In this document: piece after piece, positions 7,252 to 51,450 of the stretch
How the letters are laid out: each line of letters opens with the position of its first letter
Numbering within the stretch: position 1 is the first letter of the stretch
DNA from: Actinomycetota bacterium
Lineage (GTDB): Bacteria > Actinomycetota > Actinomycetes > S36-B12
Length of the DNA stretch: 57,268 bases
Direction of reading: 5' to 3'
Assembly: GCA_947472655.1 (NCBI GenBank)
Contig: CANJCG010000001.1
Location: 1 to 57,268, forward strand
The notes under the pieces: model-generated
The model's database searches: none
Told to the model about the DNA's origin: nothing
Seen by the model: the letters and a program-made list of their open reading frames with translations, nothing else
Translations under genes and position numbers: made by a program

Positions 7252-7272
7252 GATCTCTTCCTCTCGATCGCC

Positions 7273-9335: not shown

Positions 9336-9886
<551 letters not shown>

Positions 9887-9898
9887 GAGTAACTCCCG

Positions 9899-10258: not shown

Positions 10259-10301
10259 TTAGCGCTCCAAATGATCAGAACTTCGTGGTCAGATTGCGCC
10301 T

Positions 10302-10319
10302 TTGTGAACGCCTTCACGA
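10302..10319 (-). promoter_or_regulatory. Putative Rex operator (ROP-like inverted repeat) upstream of nuoA
   Basis: The plus strand reads TTGTGAACGCCTTCACGA, a 16/18 match to the Streptomyces Rex operator as I remember it (TTGTGAACGCGTTCACAA). It lies 44-61 nt upstream of the nuoA start codon, and a rex gene is present in the same window. Confidence 0.5.
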
Positions 10320-10356
10320 CCGAGGAAAGCATAGCGGCGGCCATGGGGTGGCGTTG

Positions 10357-11049: not shown

Positions 11050-11099
11050 TACGCCATCCTTGCATCGAGTCTTGAGTGCTCGACATCTAGGCTAGGGCT

Positions 11100-12386: not shown

Positions 12387-12418
12387 GCGCTATCTACGAT
12401 ACCGGGCAAGCTGTAAAA

Positions 12419-14209: not shown

Positions 14210-15228
14210 GCATCCACCTTTTCATGCCAAGGCTTGGCAGCAGCAGAGTGCCATGCGCGCGCAAGGCGATCCTGCCAAAAACTGAATCGTGTGGGATCAA
14301 GAAGGGCCCGCGCAGACTCGAGCGCAGCTGGATCTGGAGCCACTCGCTGGACCTTGATTGCCCCTTGGCTAGCGGTGAGCGGCACACCTACGAGATCTGA
14401 GGCTAAAAGTTTGCCTGTACCCAGTCCACATGCGCGATCAATATCTAGGGCAGCCGCAAGTGCTAGCGCTGAACACAGTCCAATCGAGGACTCCATTGCG
14501 TTGCTTACCACGACGGGAAGTTTCACGAGTTCGGCAAGCTCCACTGCTCGCCAGACTCCGCCAACAGGTGCTGGCTTGATGATGGCGACGTCTGCGATTT
14601 CCCGAAGTTCGCGCATGGCAGTTGCATCGAGGTTTTTATCTTTTCGGATCGATTCATCAACCGCGATAGGCACGTCGATGGCAGCACGAACGGCACGAAG
14701 ATCCTCGTTGCTTTCAACCGGCTGCTCTACGTATTCCAGTCCATAGACAGCAAGTCGCTTCAAAGCACTGATCGCATCAACAGCAGACCAACAGGCATTG
14801 GCATCGATACGGATTCGGCCGATTCCGCTTCCTAGCACTGCATCCAAGGCATCACGAGTTGCAGAGACTCGTGCCTCGTCTGCGAGCGGGTCTCCGCTCA
14901 CTTTCACTTTGATCGTGGTGCAGCCGTCATTGACCGCTGCTTCGCGCACTAACACTGAAGCCACTTCAGCGCTCACAGCTGGGATGATCGCGTTGACGTT
15001 CACGGAAGTTCGCTGAGCTTGCGGCCAATCTCCGTAGGCTGCTTCGAGGGCGCTTGCAAGCCATCGGCCACTGTATTCATCACCATAATCATCAAATGGG
15101 GCGAACTCGCCCCAGCCAGACGGCCCTTGAATCAGCAGACCCTCACGAACAGTGACACCCCTAAATTCACGATGCAGTCTGATCGCGAACGGAGTGGCAG
15201 CCGCAAGGAGAAAGCCAGGCAGGCTCAC
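14206..15228 (-). CDS. menC: o-Succinylbenzoate synthase (enolase superfamily)
   Basis: 340-aa enolase-superfamily barrel ([21 protein letters not shown]). Wedged between menB and menD with 4-nt overlaps. Confidence 0.85.
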
Positions 15229-16157
15229 GGGCGTTTAGGGAACTTCGAGAAGTCTGGCTTACGTTTTTCTTTATAAGCATCGCGTCCTTCTTGAGCTTCT
15301 TCACTCATGTAGAACAACAAGGTGGCGTCACCAGCGAGCTGTTGAATCCCAGCAAGTCCATCGTCTGCTGCGTTGTGTGCGGCTTTAAGCATGCGCAATG
15401 ACAGCGGCGAGAGTTGCAACATCTCGTGAGCCATTTCAACCGTTGCAATTTCTAGGTCGACAAGCGGAACAACTTCATTCACTAAGCCCCAGTCATAGGC
15501 TTGTTCAGCGCCGTACTGACGACATAAGTACCACACTTCGCGAGCACGCTTTTGTCCGATGATGCGAGCTAGCAGACCAGAGCCATAGCCACCATCGAAG
15601 GAGCCAACTCGTGGGCCTGTTTGCCCAAAACGCGCATTTTCTGCGGCAACCGTCATGTCACACACCACATGCAGCACATGTCCGCCACCCATTGAGTAAC
15701 CAGCGACCATCGCGATGACAGGCTTAGGAATGCGTCGGATCAGAATCTGAAGATCGAGAACGTTGAGTCGTCCAACGCCAGCAGCCGCGACAGCGTCGTC
15801 GCCGATGTAGCCATCATCACCACGAATGATTTGATCGCCACCTGAACAAAACGCTAAGTCTCCTTGGCCAGTCAAGATGATCACACCAACGCGTCCATCG
15901 TCACGCGCCCGAGTGAACGCCTCGATCAGTTCAATAATGGTCTGTGGACGAAACGCATTGCGCTTCTCTGGGCGGTTAATCGTTATCTTGGCAACACCTT
16001 CTGCATCACCAAGGGAAATCTCATACTTAATATCGTTGAACTCACCCTGTGATTGCCACTCACAAGCCGGAGTCGCTGACGAATGCGCTGGGTTGGTCAT
16101 TGCTGGCGAATCAGCGGCAACGACTGGAGGCAAGATGTATCGCGTACGGGTATCCAT
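15225..16157 (-). CDS. menB: 1,4-dihydroxy-2-naphthoyl-CoA synthase
   Basis: 310-aa crotonase fold ([27 protein letters not shown]). The start could instead be the internal ATG at 16100 (MTNPAHSS). Confidence 0.95.
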
Positions 16158-16190
16158 AACCGGAACGCTATCGCGACTACGATTGGCCTA

Positions 16191-17408
16191 ATGCCGGCCC
16201 GACCACTCATTGCGATATCGGTCCCTTCGGGCCCCGATGGGTTAAGTGCGCTCATTGGTCCACTACGAGCGGCACTGAGCGGCACTGGAGCGGCGATCAC
16301 CCCCATCCCGGCGCAAACCTCCGGATTCTCACCTCAATATTTAGCACAGCTCCTGGCTGCGACTCGTCCTGACGACCCAGCTCAGACCCTAGAGACCGAC
16401 GAAGTGGCGGTGGTGCTGGCGACTTCCGGCTCAACCCAGAACCCCAAGGGCGTGCTGCATAGCGCCACAACGTTGAGCGCCTTGTCATCAGCGGTCCAAG
16501 GCGGCGCAACACCACAATGGATAGCCGCGTTACCCATCACCTCAATGGGTGGCTTCAATGTGGTCGTACGGGCCCTTGAAACAGGGCTTGACCCATTACC
16601 GATGGACAGTTTGGGTGGAGCAAAACCATTCACTCCGGCCGGATTTATCTCTGCAGTTCACTTAGCAACCCAACGATCCAGCGATATTCGGGTCTCCCTT
16701 GTCGCAGCTCAAGTTCGCCGACTTCTTAGCGATCCTGAGGGGATCGATGCGCTGCTGCAGTGTTCACAAATCTTGGTTGGCGGAGGTCCCCTGCCTTCCG
16801 TGACAGCCGATGCGGCAAGGGCCGCGGGCATCACGTTGACCACAACCTACGGTGCAACGGAAACTGCCGGTGGTGCCGTCTTTAACTCACAACCACTTGC
16901 CGGTGTCACCATTTCTATCGACCCTGAAAGTTCAGAGATCTCTTTGACTGGTGCCATGGTTGCTCTTGGCTATCGCTGCGCGCCCGAACTCACTGCGCAG
17001 CGTTTTGTGCAGGGTAGTTATCGAACTGGGGATCTTGGAACCTTCACTGACCATCTCACAGTTACCGGACGCATCGACGATGTAACAACGATTAATGGTG
17101 TCAATGTTTCGCTGCAGGCAGTTGAAGAAATTCTCAATAATTGCGAGGGGGTGGTCGCGGCTGCTGTAGTTTCTGTCCCTGATGTCGGAGATGAAGATCA
17201 ACTCTTTGCGCTTATTGAACCGGCTCGTGACGTCGATCATCACACTCTTCGCATCGAACTTCGCAGCGTTGTGAACCTTGCTCTCGGCGCGGCCGCGACT
17301 CCCCGTTATTTTGCTTTTCTCGATGCAATTCCAACATTGCCGAACAACAAAGTTGATCGGCAATCAATCCTGCAACTCACTCGCGATGGAGCGTTATGGC
17401 AACGGTAA
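16191..17408 (+). CDS. menE: o-Succinylbenzoate-CoA ligase
   Basis: Adenylate-forming enzyme motifs (LATSGSTQNPKGV, YGATETAG, RTGDLG). I placed the start at the ATG at 16191 (MPARPL...), because the track start at 16083 would overlap divergent menB. Confidence 0.85.
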   Translation: MPARPLIAISVPSGPDGLSALIGPLRAALSGTGAAITPIPAQTSGFSPQYLAQLLAATRPDDPAQTLETDEVAVVLATSGSTQNPKGVLHSATTLSALSSAVQGGATPQWIAALPITSMGGFNVVVRALETGLDPLPMDSLGGAKPFTPAGFISAVHLATQRSSDIRVSLVAAQVRRLLSDPEGIDALLQCSQILVGGGPLPSVTADAARAAGITLTTTYGATETAGGAVFNSQPLAGVTISIDPESSEISLTGAMVALGYRCAPELTAQRFVQGSYRTGDLGTFTDHLTVTGRIDDVTTINGVNVSLQAVEEILNNCEGVVAAAVVSVPDVGDEDQLFALIEPARDVDHHTLRIELRSVVNLALGAAATPRYFAFLDAIPTLPNNKVDRQSILQLTRDGALWQR

Positions 17409-18271
17409 GTCAGTGGATTGGTGGCGCTCGGCCGCGTACGTTGCCTTCAGCTATCGCTCCAGTAGCCATCGGTGGTGGGTTAGCTGCCCGTGCCGACTCC
17501 TTCATCTTGGTGCGGGTATTCCTTGCACTCGTTGTCGCCCTCGCACTTCAGATTGGTGTGAATTACGCCAATGATTACAGCGATGGAATCAAAGGAACTG
17601 ATGAAGTGCGTGTCGGACCAGTTCGCCTTGTTGGGCAGAAGCTTGCAACACCCTCACAAGTCAAATTCGCAGCCTTATCTTGTTTTGCAGCAGCGATGTT
17701 AGCCGGCCTGGCTCTGATTTTGATTACTTCACTGTGGTGGTTGACCATCGTGGGAGTGGCGTGTGTGGCCGCAGCTTGGTTTTACACTGGGGGTAAACAT
17801 CCTTACGGATACCTTGGCCTTGGTGAGGTTTTTGTTTTCGTTTTCTTCGGCTTAGTTCCCGTTCTTGGAACTGTCTACGTACAGACGTTCACCATTACTG
17901 CGGCAGATGTTTTTGCTGCCTGTGCTATCGGTCTACTCATTTGCACATTGCTCGTTGTGAATAACCTTCGCGATATTCCCACTGATATTGGCGCAGGTAA
18001 ACGAACTCTCGCAGTAAAACTTGGTGACCATCGCACTCGCTTGCTTTATGTGGGGTTTGTGGTTTCAGCCATGGTCCTCACCGTGATTGTCGCTGCCCTC
18101 ACAACCTGGTGGCTATTACTGGTCTTGGTCAGTTTTGTGCTCGGGATTCAACCCGTTCGTCTAGTCACCAGCGGCGCCGTCGGACCCAGTCTGGTCGTTG
18201 CCCTCAAGCAAAGTGGTCTGCTCGTCTTGATCTACGGACTCGGTGCTGGAGCTTTGCTCGCCTGGGCTTGA
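17396..18271 (+). CDS. menA: 1,4-dihydroxy-2-naphthoate polyprenyltransferase
   Basis: 291-aa polytopic UbiA-family protein with the Asp-rich motif NYANDYSDGIKGTD. 13-nt overlap with the end of menE. Confidence 0.9.
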   Translation: MATVSQWIGGARPRTLPSAIAPVAIGGGLAARADSFILVRVFLALVVALALQIGVNYANDYSDGIKGTDEVRVGPVRLVGQKLATPSQVKFAALSCFAAAMLAGLALILITSLWWLTIVGVACVAAAWFYTGGKHPYGYLGLGEVFVFVFFGLVPVLGTVYVQTFTITAADVFAACAIGLLICTLLVVNNLRDIPTDIGAGKRTLAVKLGDHRTRLLYVGFVVSAMVLTVIVAALTTWWLLLVLVSFVLGIQPVRLVTSGAVGPSLVVALKQSGLLVLIYGLGAGALLAWA

Positions 18272-18595
18272 TTGTGCGCGAAGGATCTCTTGCTGCCACT
18301 TATCTTCGGCAGCGGCCGAACTCTCGATCTTAGAATTGATGCCACTAAAGAATGCACCGACGCTTTCGCTCATTGCATCTCGCTGGCGGTCAAGTAACAC
18401 GATGCTGATCGCGCTTGAAATTAATAGGGCGAGAACGAGGGCCAAGATCCCCTTCACTGGAGTGAGGAACTGCAGAATTGCCCAGAGACCAAACCAGAGC
18501 AATAAGCGCGCAATGGTGTACGTCACAAAATTGAGCCACCGGCTTTTAGGTTGAGTCACAGCCTTACAGTAAGTGACGCAAAACTGCAGGTGCAC
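18161..18595 (-). CDS. DUF4229-like small membrane protein
   Basis: Two-TM core (YTIARLLLWFGLWAIL...ILALVLALLISSAISIVLLDRQRDAMS) typical of DUF4229 proteins found beside menA in actinobacteria. A more likely start is the GTG at 18559 (VTQPKSRW), preceded by AAGG. The acidic, low-complexity tail overlaps the menA 3' end. Confidence 0.65.
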   Translation of the reverse strand: MHLQFCVTYCKAVTQPKSRWLNFVTYTIARLLLWFGLWAILQFLTPVKGILALVLALLISSAISIVLLDRQRDAMSESVGAFFSGINSKIESSAAAEDKWQQEILRAQSSPGEQSSSTESVDQDEQTTLLEGNDQTGSDGAAGD

Positions 18596-18653
18596 GCTGG
18601 AGTTAGCGTGTGCGTGGAAAGAACGGGCGTTAGAATGTGCCTAGGAGGCATGT

Positions 18654-18959
18654 GTGATTAGAGTTTTGGGCATCATCTGCGTGGTGGCGCTCTACATCTG
18701 GTTCGTCGTTGACGTAATTCAGTCACCGAAATCAGGGGTGCGAAATTTACCCCGCGGCATTTGGCTGTTGATCGTGTTACTTCTCCCTATTCTCGGTGGA
18801 TTGCTTTGGGTGCTCTTTGGGCGAACAAGGCCAACTCCCGGAAAGCGACGCGGCCGTCGTGGCCCAGTGGCCCCCGATGACGACCCTCGTTTTCTGGCAA
18901 AACTTGATGAAGATGAATGGCGTCGCAAAATGCGCGAACGCCGAGGAGATGCGACCTAA
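18654..18959 (+). CDS. PLD nuclease N-terminal domain (PLDc_N)-like small membrane protein
   Basis: 101 aa. GTG start preceded by AGGAGG at 18644-18649. Two TM helices with the characteristic VVDVIQSP...VRNLPRGIWLLIVLLLPILGGLLWVLFGR pattern. Confidence 0.75.
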   Translation: MIRVLGIICVVALYIWFVVDVIQSPKSGVRNLPRGIWLLIVLLLPILGGLLWVLFGRTRPTPGKRRGRRGPVAPDDDPRFLAKLDEDEWRRKMRERRGDAT

Positions 18960-19918
18960 CTACCAACCCCTGCATATGAATGCAGGCTGTTTGCCAGAAA
19001 GTTCACCCCGAAGTAGTTCATCAAGAATGCGATCCAGCCAGCCAAGGCAATGAGTGAGGCCTTATTTCCGCGCCAGCCTGCGGTAGACCGCGCATGAAGA
19101 TAAGCCGCATAAATCACCCAGGTGATGAATGCCCACGTTTCTTTAGGGTCCCAGCCCCAGTAACGACCCCACGCGTTCTCGGCCCAGATCGCCCCAGCAA
19201 CCACGGTGAATGTCCATAGTGGGAAGGCAAAGGCGAGAGTCTTGTTCGTGATGGAACGAAGGCGCTCAGCATTAGGAATTCGCGTTGCCAAGATTCCGGT
19301 GACTTCTACGCCCGCTGCGGCTTTGCGCTCAGCGCGATCACTCACGAACGAGAGTCCGGCAGTTGCAGCAGCAATGGTGAAGGCTCCGGAACAAATGATC
19401 GCAGCAAGCACGTGAATCACGAGCCAATAGGACTTCAAAGCTGGCACCAGTTGAGCAGCTTCGGTGTAGAGCACAGTGACGGCCACCCCCAGTGTCAGCA
19501 AAACGGGGATCACGATGAAAAGTCCAAGCCAACGTAGATCAATTCTCGTGTTAGCAATCAGGAAAACGCCAAGCACGCCTAGGGCAGCAGTGATCGAGAA
19601 CTCATACATGTTGCCCCACGGCGCACGTCCGGCCCAGACTCCACGCAGGACAACACCTGCAAGTAATAGCGCAAACGCCAACCAGGTTAAGGAGATGCCA
19701 ATATTTGACGCACGTCGCCCAGGAATTTCAGTCTCTACGACAGTTTGGGTGAGAACAGCAGCGCCGCCAGCACTCATCGTAGATTCAGTCACAGAACTAC
19801 TTGCCCGCCTGCGCCCGCCTGCGAAGGAGGCAGCAAACGAAAACATCGCGAAGGTCAGAACCAACATCGATGAATAAATCATCACGTTGCTTATGCGTGC
19901 GAGTGACTCTGGGCTCAA
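18956..19918 (-). CDS. ccsB: c-type cytochrome biogenesis protein CcsB/ResC
   Basis: 320-aa polytopic protein with the Trp-rich haem-handling motif WGRYWGWDPKETWAFITW. 4-nt overlap with resB. Confidence 0.9.
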   Translation of the reverse strand: MSPESLARISNVMIYSSMLVLTFAMFSFAASFAGGRRRASSSVTESTMSAGGAAVLTQTVVETEIPGRRASNIGISLTWLAFALLLAGVVLRGVWAGRAPWGNMYEFSITAALGVLGVFLIANTRIDLRWLGLFIVIPVLLTLGVAVTVLYTEAAQLVPALKSYWLVIHVLAAIICSGAFTIAAATAGLSFVSDRAERKAAAGVEVTGILATRIPNAERLRSITNKTLAFAFPLWTFTVVAGAIWAENAWGRYWGWDPKETWAFITWVIYAAYLHARSTAGWRGNKASLIALAGWIAFLMNYFGVNFLANSLHSYAGVGS

Positions 19919-21474
19919 CGTTCCTCCTCGGTTATTCCCCGTGCGACACCTGCTGCTTGGAGGGCTTGCTCAACAAGATCAAGATCCTCTGACAGCGCGC
20001 CAATATCTTTATCTTCAAGTGTCGAAGCGCGCATAATTCCGGCAACTTGGATAACGGTAACCCCATCGCGCTCGACAACTTTCACCCACACCCGTCGGCG
20101 ACGAATGAACAGCGACATCGTGAGCCCGATGATTGCCAAGGCCGCGAAGATCAAGGCGATCTCCTTGCCTGGGTCATAGGCGATTTGGAATGACGCCCAA
20201 CGCTTGTACCCCAAGAACGCGACCGTTCCTGAGCCATCTGGCAAGGTCCAACTCTGCCCTGGCTTGAGTTGCTCGAGGCCAATCTTGGTCATGTTGTCTG
20301 TCACAAGCCGGTAGACGCTTTGGGGCTTTCCAGTATTCAAACCAAGATCACCCTTCCAAGCTGACATGAATACGGCCGGGTCATCAGGCCCAGGAAAAGT
20401 TGAGTGCGGCCCAAGAACTTCATCAAGTGCCGCAGTCGGAAGGAACAACGCCTGAATGCCAAGTTGCGGAGTGGAGTCGGGTATTTTTACGACTCCCGTT
20501 GCCGTGCCATTGCCGTCCTGTGGCAGGAATGGCACGGCATCTTCGAAAACTGCCTTGCCAGTCTCATCTGTCACTTTGATTAATGGCGCGTACCCATGAC
20601 CAACCAAGAACACCTTTGCGCCGCTCACCACTAGGGGTTCATTAACTTCAACAAGTCTGTGTTCTATCGGTGCTGTCGGGTCTACTTTGTACGACATTTC
20701 GGCTTCGAAGGCGCGAGGGGCACCCCGCTGGGCGACTCCACGCTCAAAATCAACCGTGAACTTATCAAGGGTGAAGGAGAATGGCGGAAGCGCTTGAGCA
20801 TCTGTATAGCGTCCGCCACCCCAGGCGTCGTACTGCGTAACGGTATTGGAAAATCCCGAACCCTCGCGAACAATCACATTGCCCTTCCAGCCAAAGAGCC
20901 CACCTATAGCAATCGCAGCAAGAACAAACAGCAACGACAAATGGAAAACTAAGTTCCCAGTTTCACGCAGATATCCTTTTTCGGCTGCCACCCAAGTTGG
21001 CGACTCAACCGGCCCCGCTACTACTCGCCATTTGGCTTTGCGCAATGTCTCAGTAACTTCGCTCAGCACCTCTTCAGTGCTCGCCGTAGCAATGTTCTCG
21101 CGAGTACCCGCGAAGCGTTCCAGTATCCGAGGGACTGGAGGCGGAGCGCTGCGCATCGCTCGGTAATGAACACCGACGCGAGGTATGACGCAACCAATGA
21201 GTGATACGAAAAGTAAGAGATATACCGCTGAGAACCAAGGGGAGGAGTACACCTCGAAGAACCCGAGTCGGTCCAGAATTGGTCCCCACGTCGGAGAGTT
21301 AGTTATGAAATTACGCACCTTGATCGGGTCAACACCGCGCTGAGGATAAACCGAACCGGGAACGCTCGCTAAGGCCAATAAGAAGAGCAGAACAAGCGCA
21401 GTCTTCATACTGGTCAGTTGACGCCACAGCCAACGGAAAAACCCGGTGTTGGTCATTGGTGGCAAATTCGTCAT
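19915..21474 (-). CDS. resB: Cytochrome c biogenesis protein ResB/Ccs1
   Basis: ResB-type N-terminus (FFRWLWRQLTSMKTALVLL), a large extracytoplasmic domain and a C-terminal TM helix. I placed the start at the ATG at 21474, which forms an ATGA overlap with the ccdA stop; the track start at 21513 would overlap ccdA by 43 nt. Confidence 0.88.
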   Translation of the reverse strand: MTNLPPMTNTGFFRWLWRQLTSMKTALVLLFLLALASVPGSVYPQRGVDPIKVRNFITNSPTWGPILDRLGFFEVYSSPWFSAVYLLLFVSLIGCVIPRVGVHYRAMRSAPPPVPRILERFAGTRENIATASTEEVLSEVTETLRKAKWRVVAGPVESPTWVAAEKGYLRETGNLVFHLSLLFVLAAIAIGGLFGWKGNVIVREGSGFSNTVTQYDAWGGGRYTDAQALPPFSFTLDKFTVDFERGVAQRGAPRAFEAEMSYKVDPTAPIEHRLVEVNEPLVVSGAKVFLVGHGYAPLIKVTDETGKAVFEDAVPFLPQDGNGTATGVVKIPDSTPQLGIQALFLPTAALDEVLGPHSTFPGPDDPAVFMSAWKGDLGLNTGKPQSVYRLVTDNMTKIGLEQLKPGQSWTLPDGSGTVAFLGYKRWASFQIAYDPGKEIALIFAALAIIGLTMSLFIRRRRVWVKVVERDGVTVIQVAGIMRASTLEDKDIGALSEDLDLVEQALQAAGVARGITEEER

Positions 21475-22214
21475 AGCGCTGTCTCGAATCCAGGAATAGT
21501 TACCCGCAACCAAATAGTGAAATCAAGCCAAAGTCCAGTGACGAGTAGTACTCCCACTGCTACCAGCATCGCACCACCGATGCGCATCACAAGTTCGTAG
21601 TGGTTACGGATCCAACCGATCGCTCGTCCCATTCGGGTGAAGAGCAATCCAAGCAAAACAAATGGCAAACCAAGCCCTAAGCAATAGACCAGTGACAACA
21701 AGGCTCCACGCGCTGCGCTTGCTTCTGTAAAAGCCAAACTTTGTACAGCAGCAAGGGTCGGTCCGATGCACGGAGACCATCCCAAACCGAAAAGAACCCC
21801 AAGGATTGGTGCGCCTGCAACCCCCCAGGTGGGTAAGCGATGCATGCGCCATTCGCGTTGCAGTCCAGGAATAAATCCCATGAACGCTAGGCCCATCACA
21901 ATGACAACTACCCCAAGGACGCGATCAATGGTTTCCTGATATTCCAACAACGTTGATCCGATGGAGCCAAAGAGAACTCCATAGGACACGAAAATGATGC
22001 TGAAGCCGGCGACAAACAACACACTGCCAAGAAGCACCCGGCCGCGATTGCCTTTGACATCCGCGAGTTCTGCACCGGTGAGCCCCGTGATGTAAGACAA
22101 ATAGCCCGGAGCTAGCGGTAGGACACAAGGCGAAGCAAAAGCTAGGAGTCCAGCAGCGAAGGCCAGGGGTAACGCGAAAAGCAAGGTGCCTTCTGAGATC
22201 ACATCCGTGATCAT
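21471..22214 (-). CDS. ccdA: Cytochrome c biogenesis thiol-disulfide transporter CcdA (DsbD family)
   Basis: 247 aa, six TM helices, with the two conserved Cys motifs ASPCVLPL and WSPCIGP. Confidence 0.9.
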   Translation of the reverse strand: MITDVISEGTLLFALPLAFAAGLLAFASPCVLPLAPGYLSYITGLTGAELADVKGNRGRVLLGSVLFVAGFSIIFVSYGVLFGSIGSTLLEYQETIDRVLGVVVIVMGLAFMGFIPGLQREWRMHRLPTWGVAGAPILGVLFGLGWSPCIGPTLAAVQSLAFTEASAARGALLSLVYCLGLGLPFVLLGLLFTRMGRAIGWIRNHYELVMRIGGAMLVAVGVLLVTGLWLDFTIWLRVTIPGFETAL

Positions 22215-22804
22215 GATGTGCTCTTTTGTACGTCATCGATCACACTGCGAAGCGCGGCTTGCGTCGTCGCACCAAGAATACGGGCTGCGACGTTGCCCTG
22301 AGCATCAACAATCAACGTTGACGGAATGGCTTGCGCTGGCAAGGTTTCGCGAAAGAGCAACTGCACTTGTGCTTGCGTATCGATCGCCTGCGGATAAGTG
22401 ATCCCGTATCTATCGACAAAGTTTTGTGCAGCCGTGTCTGAATCCCGCGTATCAAGACCAACGAACTGCACTTTTTTCTGGTTGGACTTCGCCCACACCT
22501 CTTGCAGCTCGGGTGCTTCTGCGCGACAAGGTGCACACCATGAAGCCCACACGTTCATCACAACAACTTTGCCAAGTTGTTTGCTGAGTGTGAAATCAGA
22601 TCCGCCCAAAGTCCTGAGAGTGAAATCTGGGGCCGGTACTCGCTTCTCGACTGCCACGACTTCGATTGAACCGTCACCGGCAACGAAGTTGGTCTCGCTG
22701 CCCGCAGATGCCGTGTTCTTTGCATCGCTACAGCCAGATACCAGCACAGACGACATAACTAATAATGCGACACCGGAAGCGATTCTTGTATTGGTAATGC
22801 GCAT
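22211..22804 (-). CDS. TlpA/ResA-like thioredoxin-fold lipoprotein
   Basis: 197 aa. Lipobox LVSGC after a signal peptide and the CxxC active site WASWCAPCRAE. Sits in a ccdA-resB-ccsB context. Confidence 0.87.
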   Translation of the reverse strand: MRITNTRIASGVALLVMSSVLVSGCSDAKNTASAGSETNFVAGDGSIEVVAVEKRVPAPDFTLRTLGGSDFTLSKQLGKVVVMNVWASWCAPCRAEAPELQEVWAKSNQKKVQFVGLDTRDSDTAAQNFVDRYGITYPQAIDTQAQVQLLFRETLPAQAIPSTLIVDAQGNVAARILGATTQAALRSVIDDVQKSTS

Positions 22805-22827
22805 GGATGCTCAGGCGGTGACGAATG

Positions 22828-23475
22828 TCACGCGCCAGCCACCTTGCTGGCTTTTTCAAGCAAATCTCGTGAAGGCTCGGTGTAGGTGATTGCCAAGAGT
22901 TCGCCGTCTCGGTAGGTCAGTGAAGTAATCGATGCGAGCGAGCATTGCCGGCTGCGCGGGTCATGCCACAAGCGGCGTTGCTCTGCTGCAAGGCGGGCAA
23001 TCCAGATCGGCAATTGATGACTCACAAGTACTACTTCGCCGCCAAGGAATTGATCACGCGCTGCATGAACAGCCTCGGTCATGCGAGCCGCGACAATGTC
23101 GTACGGCTCTCCCCAGGACGGCTTAAAAGGGTTGTACAGGTGCTTCCAAGTGCGCGGCTGCTTGAGAACTCCGTCACCAACACTTACGCGTTGTCCTTCA
23201 AAGACATTGTCAGCTTCAATGAGGCGCGGATCAGTCGAGATTTCCAGGCCGTGAGTAGCTGCCATCGGAGACGCAGTTTGCTGAGCACGCTCCATTGGTG
23301 AAGAGACAACTCCCGTGATGTCGTGACCACTCAATGCCTTGGCTGCACGCTGGGCCATTTCATGCCCAAGATCAGATAACACATAACCTGGAAGGCGTCC
23401 GTAAAGCACGCCCTGAGGATTGTCGACTTCTCCGTGGCGCAGAAGATGAACAACAGTGCGCTCTGGTGTAGCCAT
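22828..23475 (-). CDS. Histidine phosphatase (phosphoglycerate mutase) family protein
   Basis: 215 aa. Catalytic RHGE motif (LLRHGEVDNP). Occupies the same position as the mycobacterial PGM-family gene upstream of the ccdA cluster. Confidence 0.85.
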   Translation of the reverse strand: MATPERTVVHLLRHGEVDNPQGVLYGRLPGYVLSDLGHEMAQRAAKALSGHDITGVVSSPMERAQQTASPMAATHGLEISTDPRLIEADNVFEGQRVSVGDGVLKQPRTWKHLYNPFKPSWGEPYDIVAARMTEAVHAARDQFLGGEVVLVSHQLPIWIARLAAEQRRLWHDPRSRQCSLASITSLTYRDGELLAITYTEPSRDLLEKASKVAGA

Positions 23476-23481
23476 GTGCAG

Positions 23482-25212
23482 TTACGCCTTACGTCGCGTT
23501 GGAGTACGTCGTCGACTTGGTCGCCAACTACCCTCGCCCGCTTCAAGTGCGGCCAGACGTAGTTCTTCACCATGAGCGGCAAGCGCTTCAACGAGCCCGA
23601 TCAACGTAGTGCTGTCGGCTTCGACATCTACGCGAAGACCGTGCTCTTGCGCAGCCTTAACAGTGAGCGGGCCAATGCAAGCCACCACTGTGGTGTGGTG
23701 CGGTTTACCCGCAATGCCAACTAAGTTGCGAACAGTGCTGCTCGAGGTGAACAGCACAGCATCGAAGCCACCCGTTTTAATGGCTTCGCGAGTTTCAGCC
23801 GGAGGTGGTGCAGCACGCACAGTTCGGAAGGCCGTGATGTCTTCGACTTCCCAACCTAATTCCGTTAAACCGGCGACAAGTGACTCAGTGGCGATGTCAG
23901 CCCGCGGTAAAAAGATGCGGTTGATCGGATCGGTGAGCGAATCGTAGGCAGGCCATTCCTCGAGCAAGGCGGCGGTTGTTTGATCACCTTCGGTTACCAA
24001 ATCTGGACGCACACCAAAATCGATTAAGGCCGCGATTGTTGCTTCGCCAACTGCTGCAACTTTGAGTCCGGCAAACGAACGGGCATCGAGTCCATATGAG
24101 GCCAACTTCTCGCGGATTGCACGAACAGCATTAACCGAAGTGAATCCGATCCACTCATAGCGACCCGAAACTAAACCGTGGATAGCGCGATCAATTTGCT
24201 GTGGGGTGCGTGGCGGCTCAACGGAAATCGTTGGCACCTCCATCGGCACGGCTCCATGGCGGCGCAATAGCGCTGAGATGGAATCTGTTGGCTCCTGCGT
24301 GCGTGGAATCAATACGCGCCAGCCAAAGAGCGGCTTAGCTTCAAACCAGTCAGCCTTTTCACGTTGGGCAACAACCTCACCCACGACTACCACGCCAGGA
24401 CCAGCCTGCTTTGAGCGCTTTGCGATTGCACCAATTTCACTCAGGGTGCCAGCAAGGGTGCGCTGATCAACCGTGGTGCCTTGACGAGTGACAGCGATTG
24501 GCGTCTTTGGATCAGCGCCAGCGGCAATCAGATTTGCTGCAATTTCGGCGCAAGAATCAGCACCATTGAGATACACCGTAGTGATACCTGGCTGCATCAG
24601 ATCAGCCCATGGAAGATCTACTTCAGTGCCATCTACTACTCGAATCTGGCGAACCCGACCGCCAGTAAGGCTGAAGCCTGCATAAGCGGGAATACCCGTG
24701 ACATCACTAACACCGGGAGCGACTTCGAATGGCACCTTTGCTTTGCGCAAAGCCGCAGCTTCAGCAACTAAGGAACCATCAATGATTGGATCTCCAGCGA
24801 TGAGCCGCACCACATTCTTGCCTTCGCGAGCAGCATCGATCATGGCCTTGCCATGATCTCCAGCAACAATAAATTCTGTTGTTGCGCTTGCATACACACG
24901 AGCGATGGCTTCAGTTGATTCATCGGCGACGATGACATCGGCATCACGCATCAAGGCGACTGCTCGCAAAGTGAGGAGATCTGGATCTCCGGGTCCTGCT
25001 GCGACGAGTGCCACTGTTCCCACGGCTATCTTCTTGCGGACGACCTTTGCCGGAACTGTTGCGGTATCTGCTGCGGTTGCTGCACGAGTCACTGGGTGCT
25101 CTCCTGCGGTAGTGGTGGAAGTGGACGTCTTCGTTGGAGCAACCTCCGGTTGGGGAGGAACTACCTGTTTTGGCACCTTGGGTTTCGAGGTGCTGAGGGA
25201 TTGTGTTGTCAT
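23482..25212 (-). CDS. hemD: Bifunctional uroporphyrinogen-III C-methyltransferase / uroporphyrinogen-III synthase fusion
   Basis: 576 aa. A Pro/Thr/Ala-rich N-terminus of about 65 aa, then a tetrapyrrole methylase region (VAAGPGDPDLLTLRA, GDPIIDG), then about 250 aa resembling HemD. This matches the architecture of the mycobacterial hemD/cysG fusion. Its start overlaps the rex stop (25209-25212). Confidence 0.85.
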   Translation of the reverse strand: MTTQSLSTSKPKVPKQVVPPQPEVAPTKTSTSTTTAGEHPVTRAATAADTATVPAKVVRKKIAVGTVALVAAGPGDPDLLTLRAVALMRDADVIVADESTEAIARVYASATTEFIVAGDHGKAMIDAAREGKNVVRLIAGDPIIDGSLVAEAAALRKAKVPFEVAPGVSDVTGIPAYAGFSLTGGRVRQIRVVDGTEVDLPWADLMQPGITTVYLNGADSCAEIAANLIAAGADPKTPIAVTRQGTTVDQRTLAGTLSEIGAIAKRSKQAGPGVVVVGEVVAQREKADWFEAKPLFGWRVLIPRTQEPTDSISALLRRHGAVPMEVPTISVEPPRTPQQIDRAIHGLVSGRYEWIGFTSVNAVRAIREKLASYGLDARSFAGLKVAAVGEATIAALIDFGVRPDLVTEGDQTTAALLEEWPAYDSLTDPINRIFLPRADIATESLVAGLTELGWEVEDITAFRTVRAAPPPAETREAIKTGGFDAVLFTSSSTVRNLVGIAGKPHHTTVVACIGPLTVKAAQEHGLRVDVEADSTTLIGLVEALAAHGEELRLAALEAGEGSWRPSRRRTPTRRKA

Positions 25213-26012
25213 GCCTGCATCACCTGCGCTAGCGGCGTCAGGTCATCGACTCGACGTTGCTCGTGGAAGGCAAGTATTTGAAGTTCAACTGCAAGGTCGA
25301 CTTTGCGCACCTCGACACCTACCGGAACGGTGAGTACCGATGGCGCGAAATTCAAAATACTGCGCACGCCAGTAGCAACAAGTCGATCGCATACCTTTTG
25401 CGCGGCACTGGCCGGTGTTGCAATCACCGCAATGCTTGCACTGCTCGCCTTAACGAGATTCTCAAGTTCGGTGAGCGGTTGCACCACTAGGTCTCTTCCA
25501 CCCGTACACACTTTTTCGCCAATGACGTCGGGGTGTGAATCTAGAAGCCCGACAATTTCAAATCCACGTGAGGCAAAACCTTTATACGAAACCAAAGCGT
25601 GGCCCAAATTGCCAACGCCAACGATCACTACGCCCCAAGGCTGACTCAAACCAAGTTCGCGACTGATGTGATAACTCAAGAACGCAACTTCGTAGCCAAC
25701 GCCTCGAGTGCCATACGAACCAAGATGTGACAGGTCTTTGCGTAACTTCGCCGAACTAACACCGCACCTTTGCGCCAAAGTGTCGGAGGAAACTGTGTGC
25801 ACTCCGTCATCAGCTAGCCCACGCAAAACCCGGTGATATATGGGTAACCGCGCAACGGTGGCGTCGGGAATTCCGCGCCCATCGTCGCGTGTGCGACTCG
25901 AGCCAAGTTGGCGGGACAACGACACGGTGCTCCAGGGTTGTTTCACTAGGCGCTGGTATCGGGAGATACCGCGGGAAGACCTCGTGAATGCGGCCTTTGA
26001 ACTACCGGCCAC
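25209..26012 (-). CDS. rex: Redox-sensing transcriptional repressor Rex
   Basis: Rex signature GIPDATVARLPIYHRVL, SAKLRKDLSHLGSYGTRGVGYEV and a Rossmann region VVIVGVGNLGHAL. The true start may be the GTG at 25925 (preceded by GGAG), which would shorten the product from 267 to 238 aa. Confidence 0.9.
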   Translation of the reverse strand: MAGSSKAAFTRSSRGISRYQRLVKQPWSTVSLSRQLGSSRTRDDGRGIPDATVARLPIYHRVLRGLADDGVHTVSSDTLAQRCGVSSAKLRKDLSHLGSYGTRGVGYEVAFLSYHISRELGLSQPWGVVIVGVGNLGHALVSYKGFASRGFEIVGLLDSHPDVIGEKVCTGGRDLVVQPLTELENLVKASSASIAVIATPASAAQKVCDRLVATGVRSILNFAPSVLTVPVGVEVRKVDLAVELQILAFHEQRRVDDLTPLAQVMQA

Positions 26013-26029
26013 CTGCTAAGGGTAAGCAT

Positions 26030-26047
26030 TTGTGCCTTCACGCACAA
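26030..26047 (-). promoter_or_regulatory. Rex-operator-like palindrome upstream of rex
   Basis: TTGTGCCTTCACGCACAA has TTGTG/CACAA arms at 18-nt spacing and an embedded TTCACG identical to the right half of the nuoA site. It matches only 11/18 of the remembered consensus. Confidence 0.3.
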
Positions 26048-26070
26048 AGTTGATCGGACGCGTGTATCCG

Positions 26071-26322
26071 TTATTCGGACAATATCCCTCGTAAGTGCTC
26101 TGGATCGATCCGCCAGAACCCAACAATCTTCTCATCCACAAGCACAAGCGGAATCCGCTCCCAGTATTGGTCATAGAGGCCATGGTCATCCAAGATCGAA
26201 TGTTCTACCCACGTCAGATCCAACTCCGCGCAGACCGTAGCCACGACTGCTCGAGCTTCTTGGCACAGATGACAGTCAGGTTTACCGATGAGCTGCACGC
26301 GACTGATCGGTAATTGACTCAC
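26071..26322 (-). CDS. Glutaredoxin-like (thioredoxin-fold) small protein
   Basis: CxxC motif KPDCHLCQEA near the N-terminus, about 83 aa from the GTG at 26322. The track start at 26427 would overlap the divergent HAD gene. Occupies the same slot as the glutaredoxin-like gene upstream of the hem operon in mycobacteria. Confidence 0.7.
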   Translation of the reverse strand: MSQLPISRVQLIGKPDCHLCQEARAVVATVCAELDLTWVEHSILDDHGLYDQYWERIPLVLVDEKIVGFWRIDPEHLRGILSE

Positions 26323-26345
26323 ACGACTCAGACTACGCTCACTAA

Positions 26346-27203
26346 ATGGCAGAAGATGTGGACCGTGCACGAATTGCCGGGTTAGCCGCTGCCGCTGCCG
26401 CACAACTGCCCACAGACTTTGATCCAAAAACTGCAGCTGCTTTTTTTGATGTCGACAACACCATCATGCGCGGTTCAAGCTTGTTCCACGTTGCAATCGG
26501 CATGGCCCGACGCAAATTCTTCACACCGCGAGAAGTTGCGGCATTCGGAATGGCACAAGCCCGCTTTCTGGTGCGGGGGACTGAAAATCTTGATGATGTC
26601 GCGCTTGCCACTGAATCCGCATTGGCCTTTGTCAAAGGTCGGCGAGTCGATGACATCATTGCCTTTGGCCAAGAAATTTTCGACGACTCAATGGTTGACA
26701 AACTTGTCCCTGGCACCCTGGCTTTAGCTCAGGAACATGTTGACGCCGGACGCCAAGTCTGGCTCGTGACCGCGACCCCGATTGAGTTAGCTCAGGTAAT
26801 TTCAAAGCGATTAGGGCTCACAGGCGCCCTCGGTACCGTTTCTGAAATAGAAGAGAACTGTTACACCGGAAAACTCGTTGGCGCACCGCTGCACGGGCAA
26901 GCAAAAGCCGAGGCAGTGCGAGCGCTAGCCATTCGCGAAGGCCTTGACCTTTCGCAATGTTGGGCTTATTCGGATTCAGCAAATGACATACCGATGTTGA
27001 CCAATGTTGGTAATCCCGTCTGTGTAAATCCTGATCCAAAGTTACGTGCGCATGCACAACTACATGACTGGCCAATCGAAGATTTCCGCGCCCGGGCTCA
27101 TCTACGCAAAGTAACTTCGCCTACGGCTCTCGCAGCCGCAGGTGTTCTGGCAGCTGGTCTAACAATTGGGTTTGTGACCTCGCGCCTACGAAGAACGCGC
27201 TAA
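26346..27203 (+). CDS. HAD-IB family hydrolase (SerB-like phosphatase) with C-terminal TM helix
   Basis: 285 aa. HAD motif I FFDVDNTIMRGSS, motif III/IV region YSDSANDIPML, and a hydrophobic C-terminus. Confidence 0.85.
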   Translation: MAEDVDRARIAGLAAAAAAQLPTDFDPKTAAAFFDVDNTIMRGSSLFHVAIGMARRKFFTPREVAAFGMAQARFLVRGTENLDDVALATESALAFVKGRRVDDIIAFGQEIFDDSMVDKLVPGTLALAQEHVDAGRQVWLVTATPIELAQVISKRLGLTGALGTVSEIEENCYTGKLVGAPLHGQAKAEAVRALAIREGLDLSQCWAYSDSANDIPMLTNVGNPVCVNPDPKLRAHAQLHDWPIEDFRARAHLRKVTSPTALAAAGVLAAGLTIGFVTSRLRRTR

Positions 27204-49393: not shown

Positions 49394-49429
49394 AGTTAAG
49401 AGCGTAGAGGCTCGCTAACGTCTTGTGCT

Positions 49430-50338
49430 GTGGCGGCTCTCAAACCTTGGATTGACGGCTGGCAAGAGGCTGCATTTGGCCCTGACGGCTTCTACCGGAA
49501 GCAACATCCCTACGACCATTTCGCCACGTCCGTATCCCAGGATGCCTTGGCCCCAGCCCTGCTGCCCTATCTCGTCAGCGCCCTAGACCACCTTGATTCG
49601 GTAACCGTGGTTGACGTGGGAGCCGGCGATGGTGATCTCGGAGTCCAACTGCATGACCTTTTGGATGAAAACCTGCGCTTACGGGTGCATTTTCTGGCCT
49701 TGGATCTTGGACTCAGACCCATCCATTTGCCGGAGTTCATCCAATGGCGCCAAGGTGACGCCCGCGAAACGATCGCCACAATCGCTGCCGGAAACATGAT
49801 CCTGATTGCTCATGAGTTCCTAGACGATCTGCCTTGTGATGTAGTTGAAGTTGATGAAGCAGGCCTGGTGCGCCTTGGCATGGTTGAAGGAAGTACGCAG
49901 GAACTCACCTTTGGTCAGGAGCTACACGCTGCAGAACATCAGCAGCACTTGCAATGGTTGGCAAACTGGTGGCCAGTGCAACGACCGCTTATGCGGGCTG
50001 AGGTTGGCAGAAGCCGGGATGAATTTTGGAACCTCGCAACCTCTCGCATAACGGCTGGTTACTCCATTGCTATCGACTACGGACACATCAAGGCCGACCG
50101 CGAACGCGGACTTTGGGATGGAGGCACGCTCACTGGCTACCGAGACTCGATGACGGTGTCCCCTACTGCAAACAATTCGGTCAATCTCACTGCACATGTT
50201 GCGATCGATGCAATCGCTGCGGCATCGGCAGGAAATCCAGTAACCCGTACCTTTCGATTAGGACCAACCCCAGATTTTTGGTGGACGGTTGCGGCCTATG
50301 GAATTGAGTTCCCGCAACCTGACAAGATGCCTACGTGA
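49430..50338 (+). CDS. MidA/NDUFAF7-type SAM-dependent methyltransferase (DUF185 / Methyltransf_28-like)
   Basis: 302 aa, GTG start. The family hallmarks occur in order: GFYRKQHPYDHFATS, SAM loop VVDVGAGDGDLG, IAHEFLDDLPCDVVE, IAIDYGH, GTLTGYRDS, NLTAHVAIDAI. The stop overlaps the next ORF's start (GTGA at 50335-50338). Confidence 0.8.
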   Translation: MAALKPWIDGWQEAAFGPDGFYRKQHPYDHFATSVSQDALAPALLPYLVSALDHLDSVTVVDVGAGDGDLGVQLHDLLDENLRLRVHFLALDLGLRPIHLPEFIQWRQGDARETIATIAAGNMILIAHEFLDDLPCDVVEVDEAGLVRLGMVEGSTQELTFGQELHAAEHQQHLQWLANWWPVQRPLMRAEVGRSRDEFWNLATSRITAGYSIAIDYGHIKADRERGLWDGGTLTGYRDSMTVSPTANNSVNLTAHVAIDAIAAASAGNPVTRTFRLGPTPDFWWTVAAYGIEFPQPDKMPT

Positions 50339-51450
50339 CTGAAGTCTTGGTAGCGATCGGCGCAGCGCGGCATATCCCCGCGGATTTGTATTTAGATCTC
50401 GGTGAACTCCATCCCACCGGCCATGGGGCTATGCAACTGGCCCTCAACGTTGATGACGGCATCATCACCGCAGCTGATCCTCGCATTGGGTTTTTGCACC
50501 GCAGTGCTGAAAAACTCTTCGAGGCTCGCGACTATCGCCAACTCATGATGCTCGCGAATAGACATGACTGGGTGAGCGCATTCAGCTCAGAGTTGTCCAT
50601 CGCACTTGTTCTAGAAGATGCGATGGGGATCCTGACCCCCGAACGAGCGACTTGGTCTCGCATGCTGCTTGCCGAGATGAATCGAGTGACCGCAAATCTG
50701 ATCATGCTGGGTGCCTCTGCTCCCGGCTTTTCTCACCTCCTAGCTAGTCGCGAAATATTTCTTGAGTTACTTGAACAACTCACAGGCTCGAGAATTCATC
50801 CGATGTTTAACCGCATTGGCGGTATCGCTACTGGCTGCGATCCGCAGTGGCTGGATTCACTATTTTCAGCGAGTCAAAATTTACAACTCGCACTTGCCAA
50901 TCTTCCAAAGCAGATACAGCAGCAGTTTGCACCACTCATCGGTGTTGGAGTTATTACTTCCGACGCAATTCATACCTACGGCTTATCCGGCACATCGGCT
51001 TGGGCTTCCGGTGTGAAGAACGACTTGCGAGTGTCAGCGCCATATCTTGCATACCAAGATGTCCAATCTCTTTTACCCACTAGGCACCACTCAGGTGACA
51101 TCACGTCAAGATTTGTGCTGATCGCCGAGCAACTCCTAGCAAGTCTGACCATCATTGATGCAGCCATTGATTGGCTTAAAGGCGCTGGAGCAGGGCCCAC
51201 CTCTGTGCAACTACCAAAGGTAGTGCGCGCACCCGAACTCACCGCATATGGCGCTATCGAGGGGCCGCTAGGCACGATGGGCGTTTTGCTGGACAGCGTC
51301 GGCGAGAAAACACCTTGGCGCTTAAAGTTACGCACCCCTTCTTTCGCAACTATTCAAAGTTTTGAAAGCATTCTGATTGGACTCCCACTTACTGCGCTCG
51401 TACCCATGCTGCAGTCGTGCGCGTTTATGGTTGGCGACGCTGATCGGTAG
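50335..51450 (+). CDS. Orphan NuoD / complex I 49-kDa subunit paralog (shortened, function unknown)
   Basis: 371 aa. Alignable by eye along its whole length to the NuoD at 7273-8637 (LHPTGHG/QHPSTHG; [20 protein letters not shown]; [42 protein letters not shown]; [18 protein letters not shown]; [18 protein letters not shown]; GDADR/GGVDR). It lacks about 35 N-terminal and about 50-60 internal residues. It has no NiFe-hydrogenase Cys motifs. Confidence 0.85.
   Translation: MTEVLVAIGAARHIPADLYLDLGELHPTGHGAMQLALNVDDGIITAADPRIGFLHRSAEKLFEARDYRQLMMLANRHDWVSAFSSELSIALVLEDAMGILTPERATWSRMLLAEMNRVTANLIMLGASAPGFSHLLASREIFLELLEQLTGSRIHPMFNRIGGIATGCDPQWLDSLFSASQNLQLALANLPKQIQQQFAPLIGVGVITSDAIHTYGLSGTSAWASGVKNDLRVSAPYLAYQDVQSLLPTRHHSGDITSRFVLIAEQLLASLTIIDAAIDWLKGAGAGPTSVQLPKVVRAPELTAYGAIEGPLGTMGVLLDSVGEKTPWRLKLRTPSFATIQSFESILIGLPLTALVPMLQSCAFMVGDADR

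Follow-up and report, generated by a model that had tools for sequence, protein, structure and literature searches.

The stretch of DNA analysed here, hereafter the window, comprises 57,268 nucleotides of contig CANJCG010000001.1 (assembly GCA_947472655.1) and belongs to an Actinomycetota bacterium of the lineage S36-B12, a freshwater, genome-streamlined actinobacterium of about 53% GC whose closest named relatives are metagenome-assembled genomes (MAGs) labelled 'Actinomycetota bacterium' (74% identity) and Nanopelagicales (69%). It encodes two overlapping genes: ORF1, a putative methyltransferase (MT) of the MidA/NDUFAF7 family, and ORF2, a relative of the complex I subunit NuoD that we call NuoD2 (Table 1). 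A first-pass annotation had described them as the only plus-strand unit between 44.3 and 57.3 kb, joined by a GTGA overlap of stop and start codons, and both observations were confirmed: from coaX (44318) to hpt (57177) all other genes lie on the minus strand, and the context of the overlap reads ACGTGACT. The same annotation had proposed that the two proteins form an enzyme-substrate pair or an assembly factor-client pair.

The two proteins of the pair

The family assignment of ORF1, already suggested in the first-pass annotation, was supported by a hidden Markov model (HMM) search, in which the protein matched PF02636 (Methyltransf_28) with 59.5 bits and an E-value of 4.4e-16 (cutoff 23.3). 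Used as a single query, ORF1 gave a weak match, to 1zkd (DUF185) alone; a profile built from 18 members of the MT family matched the Burkholderia COG1565 structure 4f3n (2.3e-19), 1zkd (5.6e-16) and Dictyostelium MidA 5ztz, a homologue of NDUFAF7 (2.3e-6). The AlphaFold2 (AF2) model of ORF1 has a pLDDT of 92.9, and its top six Foldseek matches belong to the structures 5ztz/5zu0, 4g67/4f3n and 1zkd, with TM-scores of 0.69-0.76 and E-values of 1e-13 to 1e-15, the runners-up being generic methyltransferases 7-8 orders weaker (E about 5e-7, TM below 0.46). Among 15 diverse MTs, taken from orphan pairs and from operons, residues G64, G66, G68, E129, D132, D216, Y217 and T254 are invariant, and the conserved motifs are GxGxG, xE(F/W)LDxxP, DYG and TAHV; the AHEFLDDLP motif of ORF1 aligns with (A/G)NE(Y/V)(F/L)D.(L/M)P of 1zkd and 4f3n. 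Homologues carry the JGI label 'SAM-dependent MidA family methyltransferase'. By HMM match, modelled fold and motifs, ORF1 is a member of the MidA/NDUFAF7 family (PF02636, COG1565, DUF185) of methyltransferases that depend on S-adenosylmethionine (SAM). Streptomyces-, Micromonospora- and Cryptosporangium-type MTs end in a helical segment of some 40 amino acids (aa) that is missing from the MTs of acI-type genomes, including the one in the window, an absence consistent with genome streamlining.

ORF2 matched PF00346 (Complex1_49kDa) with an E-value of 2.3e-39, so that both Pfam families named for the pair in the first-pass annotation gave significant hits. It aligns end to end with the 454-aa NuoD of the canonical operon in the same window (25% identity, E 1e-41), and has neither the N-terminal extension of that protein nor an internal segment of some 41 aa. 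The earlier description of ORF2 as a shorter protein alignable with NuoD is correct in this respect, but the middle region has not been deleted: the short models PRK12322 (366 aa), of the Bacillus type, and FpoD (372 aa) each align to ORF2 in one stretch, and an internal deletion of NuoD was ruled out, the short form being the normal architecture of the 11-subunit type. The view of ORF2 as a shortened copy of the operon NuoD had to be abandoned as well. On the NuoD equivalog models TIGR01962, PRK06075 and PRK12322, ORF2 misses the cutoffs by a wide margin (228 vs 522, 225.5 vs 360 and 212 vs 459 bits). The canonical NuoD of the window scores 372 bits on PF00346 and 746 bits to M. smegmatis NuoD (8e9g_D).

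In a homology search ORF2 proved to have many relatives, 360-390 aa in length. In 81 NuoD2 sequences, about 42% identical overall, conservation reaches 97% or more at 81 of the 371 positions, most densely at residues 52-86, and Arg56, Trp79 and His155 are invariant (81/81). We refer to NuoDs with these three residues as the RWH type, a clade delineated in this analysis. When 1.84 billion representative proteins were searched exhaustively, about the first 95 matches were RWH, and the lower matches were NuoD or NuoCD proteins with Tyr79. The RWH set formed one split with 80 of 81 members in a crude neighbour-joining tree, roughly equidistant from short and long canonical NuoDs; monophyly was judged on the full three-residue signature, and P0344, a NuoCD-like protein with Trp79 and without His155, was thereby excluded. 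The nearest Tyr-type relatives reach 400-520 bits on the NuoD models, as against 228 for NuoD2, and their genes lie in operons of the order nuoA-B-C-D-H-I from which nuoE/F/G are absent.

The Tyr of the R-x-D-Y motif and the His of HPxxHG in NuoD are quinone-headgroup ligands. In NuoD2 the position of this Tyr is taken by Trp79, which would imply an altered chemistry at the acceptor site; the His (His30) is present in the window and is replaced by Gln or Asn in 3 of the 81 sequences. A hydrogenase large subunit was also considered for ORF2 and ruled out: conserved Cys residues are absent across the family, in agreement with the earlier remark that NiFe ligands are missing, and the NiFeSe hydrogenase model gives 17.6 bits against a cutoff of 600. 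The C-terminus of ORF2 is GDADR.

The AF2 model of ORF2 (pLDDT 79.9, pTM 0.84) superposes on NDUFS2/Nqo4 at TM-scores of 0.76-0.82. Its low-confidence parts are residues 53-65, the loop 154-163 and, at the C-terminus, residues 366-371. No loops of NuoD2 are more conserved than these, which line the N2/quinone pocket in complex I, and low confidence is expected there if such surfaces become ordered only with a partner. Taken together, NuoD2 keeps the PF00346 domain and, in the model, the NuoD fold, but is placed outside canonical NuoD by score, gene context and the Tyr ligand; by these measures it is a deep, separate NuoD lineage and not a shortened copy of the operon NuoD.

Conservation and linkage of the pair

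The spread of the pair was evaluated by scanning one genome per GTDB species, and linkage was counted in the 80 best species-representative loci. NuoD2 relatives with intact reading frames occur in at least 596 species genomes, and their hosts include Streptomyces, Kitasatospora, Streptacidiphilus, Frankiaceae, Acidothermaceae, Nocardioidaceae and Nanopelagicales-type MAGs. The adjacency seen in the window is thus widely conserved: MT lies directly upstream of NuoD2 on the same strand in 56 of the 80 loci, the spacing ranging from -12 to +303 nt and the same 4-nt overlap being present in 13 of these 56, and elsewhere within 8 kb in 15 further loci (71/80 in total), while it is absent from the other 9, of which 5 have too little upstream DNA. 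The order DUF2520(-), MT(+), NuoD2(+), orf95(-), DUF3180(-), folK(-) spans acI-type MAGs to Streptomyces. Starting from distant MT homologues, the search found that MT adjoins a PF00346 gene in Actinoplanes and lies within 3 kb of one in Cryptosporangium. Homologues of nuoB, nuoC and nuoH were found near NuoD2 neither in the window, as the first-pass annotation had observed, nor in any of the 80 related loci.

We also evaluated selection by comparison with an orthologous locus of 88% identity (L093). The ratio of nonsynonymous to synonymous substitution rates (dN/dS) is 0.16 for MT and 0.10 for NuoD2, in the range of folK (0.09) and DUF3180 (0.11). From these values both genes are judged to be under purifying selection, and the pair to be functional and ancient.

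In several acI-type lineages (L010-L012 and the loci of P0333, P0325 and P0259) NuoD2 occupies the same slot without MT. As a reference we defined a core of 98 NuoD2 positions that are at least 97% conserved in 72 sequences with linked MT. The MT-less proteins show 0, 9, 14, 14, 26, 29 and 29 substitutions in this core, compared with 0.5 on average and at most 7 in the MT-linked ones, a comparison biased by the fact that the core was derived from the MT-linked set, that three of the MT-less sequences were picked for divergence and that the lineages are not independent. The substitutions include H55N, K60E/L, D78A/C and R160T/C. This gives a hint that the constraint on NuoD2 was relaxed or altered after MT loss. 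Arg56, Trp79 and His155 persist in all MT-less NuoD2, suggesting that Arg56 has a role beyond that of a methylation target.

Some of the loci have features of their own. A divergent NuoD2 with the full RWH signature (P0321, in L090/L091) adjoins an Lsr2 gene outside the DUF2520/fol slot, and no MT was found in the roughly 1.3 kb of DNA upstream of it. On the MAG contig CAVZPI010000033.1 (L016) the whole locus ftsH...folK-DUF3180-orf95-NuoD2-MT appears twice as a mirror image joined within the MT gene; the arrangement probably reflects a fold-back artefact of assembly rather than a true inverted duplication. A protein of about 560 aa without Pfam match is encoded on the minus strand in Actinoplanes (L081, 8111-9781) and Cryptosporangium (L082, 11093-12781), convergent right after NuoD2, in the place of orf95/DUF3180.

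The arginine next to cluster N2 and the eleven-subunit operons

The alignment of NuoD2 with human NDUFS2 (5xtd_Q, mature numbering) is free of gaps from query residue 17 and chain residue 46 to Arg56, and Arg56 therefore corresponds to Arg85. This residue of NDUFS2 is symmetrically dimethylated by NDUFAF7 (PMC3829151); it lies about 3.7 Å from cluster N2, is dimethylated in P. denitrificans too and is unmodified in E. coli (PMC3750175, PMC8042128). An intersubunit residue switch has been described in T. thermophilus, in which NuoD carries Thr and Arg83 of Nqo6 (NuoB) occupies the same space (PMC8042128, PMC3750175). The canonical subunits encoded in the window, with Thr in NuoD and Arg in NuoB, have this Thermus pattern: the sequence YLHTGIEK of NuoD is shared by M. 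smegmatis 8e9g_D and T. thermophilus 2fug_4. Among the NuoD-type proteins encoded here, NuoD2 alone therefore has the Arg that enzymes of the MidA type are known to modify. It would be expected to clash with the canonical NuoB and to need a NuoB with Thr, or another residue that is not Arg, at the switch position.

Proteins with the RWH signature are also found as subunits of complete operons. In Ca. Actinomarina a conserved unit has been reported in which afuABC and heliorhodopsin are followed by a nuo operon of 11 subunits (A, B, C, D, H-N), an NDUFAF7/PF02636 gene, htpX and pspE, and the same genomes also possess a full 14-subunit operon (Bulzu et al., bioRxiv 10.1101/2021.02.01.429150). 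Our searches recovered an RWH protein, P0322, on a contig of 34% GC (L089), where a heliorhodopsin gene stands upstream and the gene order is nuoA-B-C-D-H-I-J-K-L, and a complete A-N operon in an Acidimicrobiia contig (L092) whose NuoD is likewise RWH. Both NuoDs share with ORF2 the signature and the short KVP.V..AP junction. In the NuoB of L089 the sequence MIVAGTVTDK has the predicted Thr at the switch, and AGT recurs in 115 of the 120 closest relatives of this NuoB; a homology search with this Thr-type NuoB returned Acidimicrobiia-type NuoBs only, and no NuoB2 of Streptomyces or Nanopelagicales. The heliorhodopsin gene (L089, 3795-4598) and an ABC transporter lie just upstream of the 11-subunit operon, and in L092 this operon (9627-19851) is situated about 6 kb downstream of the nuoL-M-N end of another nuo operon (1-3411).

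A metagenome scan with P0322 gave 80 further loci, in which operons were counted if at least 1 kb of DNA was available beyond nuoN. The gene abutting nuoN matches the actinomycete MT profile in 18 of 18 RWH-type 11-subunit operons and in none of 9 operons whose NuoD has the Arg without the Trp; three of the 18 abutting genes were checked and are PF02636 (84-97 bits). Fisher's exact test gives about 2e-7 for this link, a value that overstates the independent evidence because the RWH loci are closely related. Throughout the metagenome loci NuoD Arg pairs with NuoB AGT, and the sole 14-subunit locus including nuoB (L160) combines NuoD Thr with NuoB AGR. As far as gene order can tell, MT is thus tied to RWH-type NuoD in two arrangements, A-B-C-D-H...N-MT in Acidimicrobiia and MT followed by D in Actinomycetes. 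That the co-occurrence is specific to the RWH clade, and that the Acidimicrobiia arrangement is independent of the orphan pair, strengthens the case for a functional pair predicted from the window.

A split operon is also known in Streptomyces, where nuoA2, B2 and H2-N2 form one operon and nuoD2 lies elsewhere, named only in passing and apart from the other nuo2 genes (PMC8388888, PMC3765725).

Among our loci, the Streptomyces and Kitasatospora counterparts of ORF2 are 42-44% identical to it. Like ORF2 they have MT upstream and are flanked by DUF2520-panC on one side and DUF3180-folK on the other. We take them to be the nuoD2 of the literature (SCO3392 in S. coelicolor); the locus tag SVEN_3229, considered for nuoD2, proved to be an unrelated hypothetical protein. 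If MT was kept with the D gene when the operon was split, NuoD2 is indicated as its partner.

As regards the surroundings of the pair in the window, MT starts back to back with DUF2520, and NuoD2 is followed by the convergent orf95 and then DUF3180 (Table 1). A similarly tight divergent spacing next to DUF2520 is present in L085 (39 bp) and L093, and L085 retains it despite having lost MT. No sigma-70-like promoter was matched in a scan of the intergenic region, and terminator-like matches at the locus did not exceed those of shuffled controls; leaderless, back-to-back transcription from this gap is plausible. The gene orf95 stands at the end of the folE-folP-folB-folK-DUF3180 string, has no Pfam or NCBIfam match and was found in 20 of the 80 related loci as well as in L085, L087 and L093; its dN/dS of 0.04 identifies it as a real gene of unknown function. 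A search of a plasmid collection with the 2-kb pair gave no match.

The canonical nuo operon occupies 327-9886 on the minus strand (nuoB to nuoJ). Downstream of it, positions 10357-27203 form a compact respiratory and cofactor block with a menG/ubiE-type methyltransferase, menF, menD, menC, menB, menE and menA, the cytochrome c maturation genes ccsA/resB/ccdA/resA, a histidine phosphatase and a hemD-cobA fusion; a Rex-like redox-sensing repressor is encoded at 25209-26012. The Thermus-type switch, which M. smegmatis (8e9g) likewise has, may correlate with the use of menaquinone, for which the window encodes the full pathway, although this is speculation.

Table 1. Positions of the pair, its motifs and other features of the window
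Feature	Position	Strand	Remarks
ORF1, methyltransferase (MT)	49430-50338	+	GTG start, 302 aa; MidA/NDUFAF7 family, PF02636, COG1565
SAM-binding motif I DVGAGDGDLG, residues 62-71	49613-49642	+	from translation; G64, G66, G68 invariant
Family motif AHEFLDDLP, residues 127-135	49808-49834	+	from translation; E129, L131, D132 invariant
GTGA start/stop overlap (translational coupling)	50335-50338	+	TGA stop 50336-50338, GTG start 50335-50337
ORF2, NuoD2	50335-51450	+	GTG start, 371 aa; short NuoD family, PF00346
HRSAEK motif	50497-50514	+	from translation; Arg56 (50500-50502), homologue of NDUFS2 Arg85
RHDWV motif	50560-50574	+	Trp79 (50569-50571) for Tyr of canonical RMDY
RIHPMFNRIGG loop	50791-50823	+	invariant His155; Asn here in the canonical NuoD of the window
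Divergent intergenic region, 36 bp	49394-49429	.	between DUF2520 start 49393 (-) and MT start 49430 (+)
orf95, 95 aa	51485-51772	-	convergent to NuoD2, 34-bp gap; adjoins DUF3180
Canonical NuoD, 454 aa, 14-subunit operon	7273-8637	-	Thr (codon 8365-8367) at the NDUFS2 Arg85 position
Canonical NuoB	9332-9886	-	Arg (codon 9662-9664) at the Nqo6 Arg83 position

Interpretation of the pair and its place among known systems

The reading that we favour, and hold to be somewhat better than an even bet, is that MT and NuoD2 constitute an assembly factor and its substrate for a second complex I. MT would bind nascent NuoD2 and methylate Arg56 in the HR(S/G)xEK loop, the product probably being symmetric dimethylarginine as with NDUFAF7; the modified NuoD2 would then dock on a 'NuoB2' with Thr at the switch, where the Arg side chain would pack against N2. 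MT would act here as assembly factor and NuoD2 as client or substrate, or, as an alternative within the same mechanism, MT would at least chaperone NuoD2 before it docks on the Thr-type NuoB. The pair proposed in the first-pass annotation is supported in this form by the Pfam matches, conservation, selection, the homology of Arg56 with Arg85 and the RWH co-occurrence; what we infer is the arginine methyltransferase activity and the interaction, from gene linkage and this homology, together with the NuoB and membrane partners in the source organism and the function of the second complex in physiology.

Several points weigh against this interpretation. Methylation of NuoD2 by MT, and its binding, are predicted from sequence linkage and homology, and MT is distant from eukaryotic NDUFAF7 (profile E-value of 2e-6 to MidA, 13% identity in the structural alignment); in the literature searched we found no proven substrate for any actinobacterial or COG1565 enzyme. 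Conservation of Arg56 is not specific to methylation, as HRGxEK is ancestral in the NuoD family and is kept both in NuoD2 without MT and in Tyr-type operons without MT, and the equivalent Arg of E. coli is unmodified (PMC3750175). The GTGA overlap suggests near-equimolar synthesis, which is unusual for a purely catalytic modifier but in keeping with a chaperone-like assembly factor. In Acidimicrobiia MT follows nuoN, about 8 kb from nuoD, so that another subunit could be its target. In the neighbour-joining tree the operon-encoded P0322 falls just outside the main NuoD2 split. Finally, the Streptomyces nuo2 set has no NuoC gene, and nuoA2, B2 and H2-N2 were not seen for the source organism within the 57 kb of the window.

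The pair could instead be a stand-alone soluble module without membrane arm, for instance a redox or quinone sensor or another methylation-dependent factor. The absence of nuoB, nuoC and nuoH near NuoD2 in all 80 loci would be in line with this, as would the Trp that replaces the quinone-ligand Tyr in every NuoD2, the 1:1 complex suggested by the gene overlap, the persistence of NuoD2 after MT loss in some lineages, and the purifying selection on both genes in acI-type genomes, for which a second nuo operon is undocumented. However, RWH NuoDs are subunits of complete 11-subunit operons, so a stand-alone redox module becomes less likely, and in Streptomyces a complementary nuoA2, B2, H2-N2 operon without D gene exists (PMC8388888, PMC3765725). 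Arg56, His155 and the C-terminus, which face N2 in complex I, moreover show the strongest conservation within NuoD2 and yet are disordered when it is modelled as a monomer, pointing to a NuoB-like partner. We consider the stand-alone module improbable on balance. A related idea, to which we assign a similarly low probability, is that in streamlined freshwater Actinomycetota the pair may have outlived the second complex I and now acts as a soluble, methyl-arginine-bearing NuoD-like sensor of redox state or menaquinone or as a factor for canonical complex I; in a milder version, the MidA-NuoD partnership predates the proteobacterial/mitochondrial lineage or arose apart from it. A stand-alone NuoD2 would represent a new function for the 49-kDa fold, if true, and an earlier or independent partnership would contradict the view of a 'proteobacterial origin'.

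It is just as doubtful, in our judgement, that the substrate of MT is something else (a further Nuo subunit, for example NuoB2, some other protein or a small molecule), its link with NuoD2 reflecting co-regulation or assembly of the same complex. The distance between MT and nuoD in Acidimicrobiia, the lack of proven substrates for bacterial COG1565 proteins in the literature searched and the conservation of Arg56 with or without a nearby MT would all be compatible with this. Yet the sole characterised members of the family, NDUFAF7 and MidA, bind the NuoD homologue and methylate it at exactly this Arg (PMC3829151; PMC9006661), MT was kept with D, and translationally coupled to it, after the operon was split, and the NuoD2 proteins without MT have decayed around Arg56 (e.g. 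H55N, K60E/L, D78A/C).

Less probable still is an exchange of D subunits, in which NuoD2 would under certain conditions take the place of NuoD in the canonical 14-subunit complex I and would need MT to do so. The canonical nuo operon is encoded in the same window and the NuoD fold is kept (TM about 0.8), but the Arg of canonical NuoB would compete with Arg56 for space (as can be inferred from PMC8042128), every NuoB found to adjoin an RWH NuoD has Thr at the switch, with AGT in 115 of 120 close relatives, and NuoD2 is only 25% identical to the canonical NuoD, whose N-terminal extension and 41-aa segment it does not have. By the same argument of an Arg/Arg clash, simple replacement of the canonical NuoD was considered unlikely. 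That NuoD2 is a decaying NuoD duplicate next to MT by accident, as low equivalog scores and the lost quinone-ligand Tyr could suggest, deserves almost no credence, being refuted by selection (dN/dS 0.10), by conservation from Streptomyces to acI-type genomes, by the spread of intact frames over hundreds of species and by conserved synteny and overlap.

The assembly factor-substrate pair that we favour has its closest parallels in NDUFAF7 (MidA) with NDUFS2 and in alpha-proteobacterial MidA homologues with Nqo4 of P. denitrificans, which resemble it in the family and fold of the methyltransferase and in the family of the client, and Arg85 of NDUFS2, in HRGxE next to N2, is positionally identical to Arg56. 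The differences are that the two genes of the window form one translationally coupled operon, that the client belongs to a divergent lineage with Trp for Tyr instead of being the main NuoD, and that MT is a remote relative of NDUFAF7, with a predicted activity and in Actinomycetota. The operon of Ca. Actinomarina and other Acidimicrobiia has the same NuoD signature, the short form, a Thr-type NuoB and a PF02636 gene in the same unit; it is intact, with MT after nuoN, whereas the window keeps only MT and then D, overlapping, and the MTs of the two arrangements are 14-22% identical. Short NuoDs (PRK12322) and FpoD, of about 366-372 aa, lack the 41-aa segment as ORF2 does, but the short Tyr-type NuoDs retain the Tyr, and PF02636 follows none of their nine operons. 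Whereas the Thr of T. thermophilus Nqo4 and Arg83 of Nqo6 have their match in the canonical NuoD and NuoB of the window, the NuoD2 type shows the mitochondrial pattern of NuoD Arg with NuoB Thr.

The methylation of NDUFS2 Arg85, the modification of P. denitrificans Nqo4, the orphan nuoD2 of Streptomyces and the adjacency of NDUFAF7 in Ca. Actinomarina were already known. In the literature that we searched for an MT-NuoD pairing, the passing mentions of nuoD2 and this adjacency were all we encountered, and no account of a coupled MT-NuoD2 cassette was found; the published accounts of nuoD2 make no mention of the MidA-like neighbour, the RWH signature or the Arg85 homology. New relative to that literature are the conserved coupled cassette, the RWH clade that unites orphan NuoD2 with the NuoD of the Acidimicrobiia operon, the strict co-occurrence of clade and MT, and the Arg/Thr pattern, by which NuoD2 would be the only possible NuoD-type target in these genomes.

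So far, mitochondria and one alpha-proteobacterium have been the only systems in which to study why complex I needs a dimethylarginine next to N2. The cassette is present in tractable Streptomyces and in hundreds of species, and could offer a simple bacterial system for this question. Actinomycetota hold both solutions for the arginine at N2, and the MidA-like gene accompanies only the complex with NuoD Arg and NuoB Thr, which suggests that MT is required just in those cases where NuoD supplies the Arg. The RWH signature defines the D subunit of the second, 11-subunit complex I, which has no NADH-oxidising module, and, if MT and NuoD2 are the partners that we propose, the NDUFAF7-NuoD partnership would extend beyond the alpha-proteobacterial and mitochondrial lineage.

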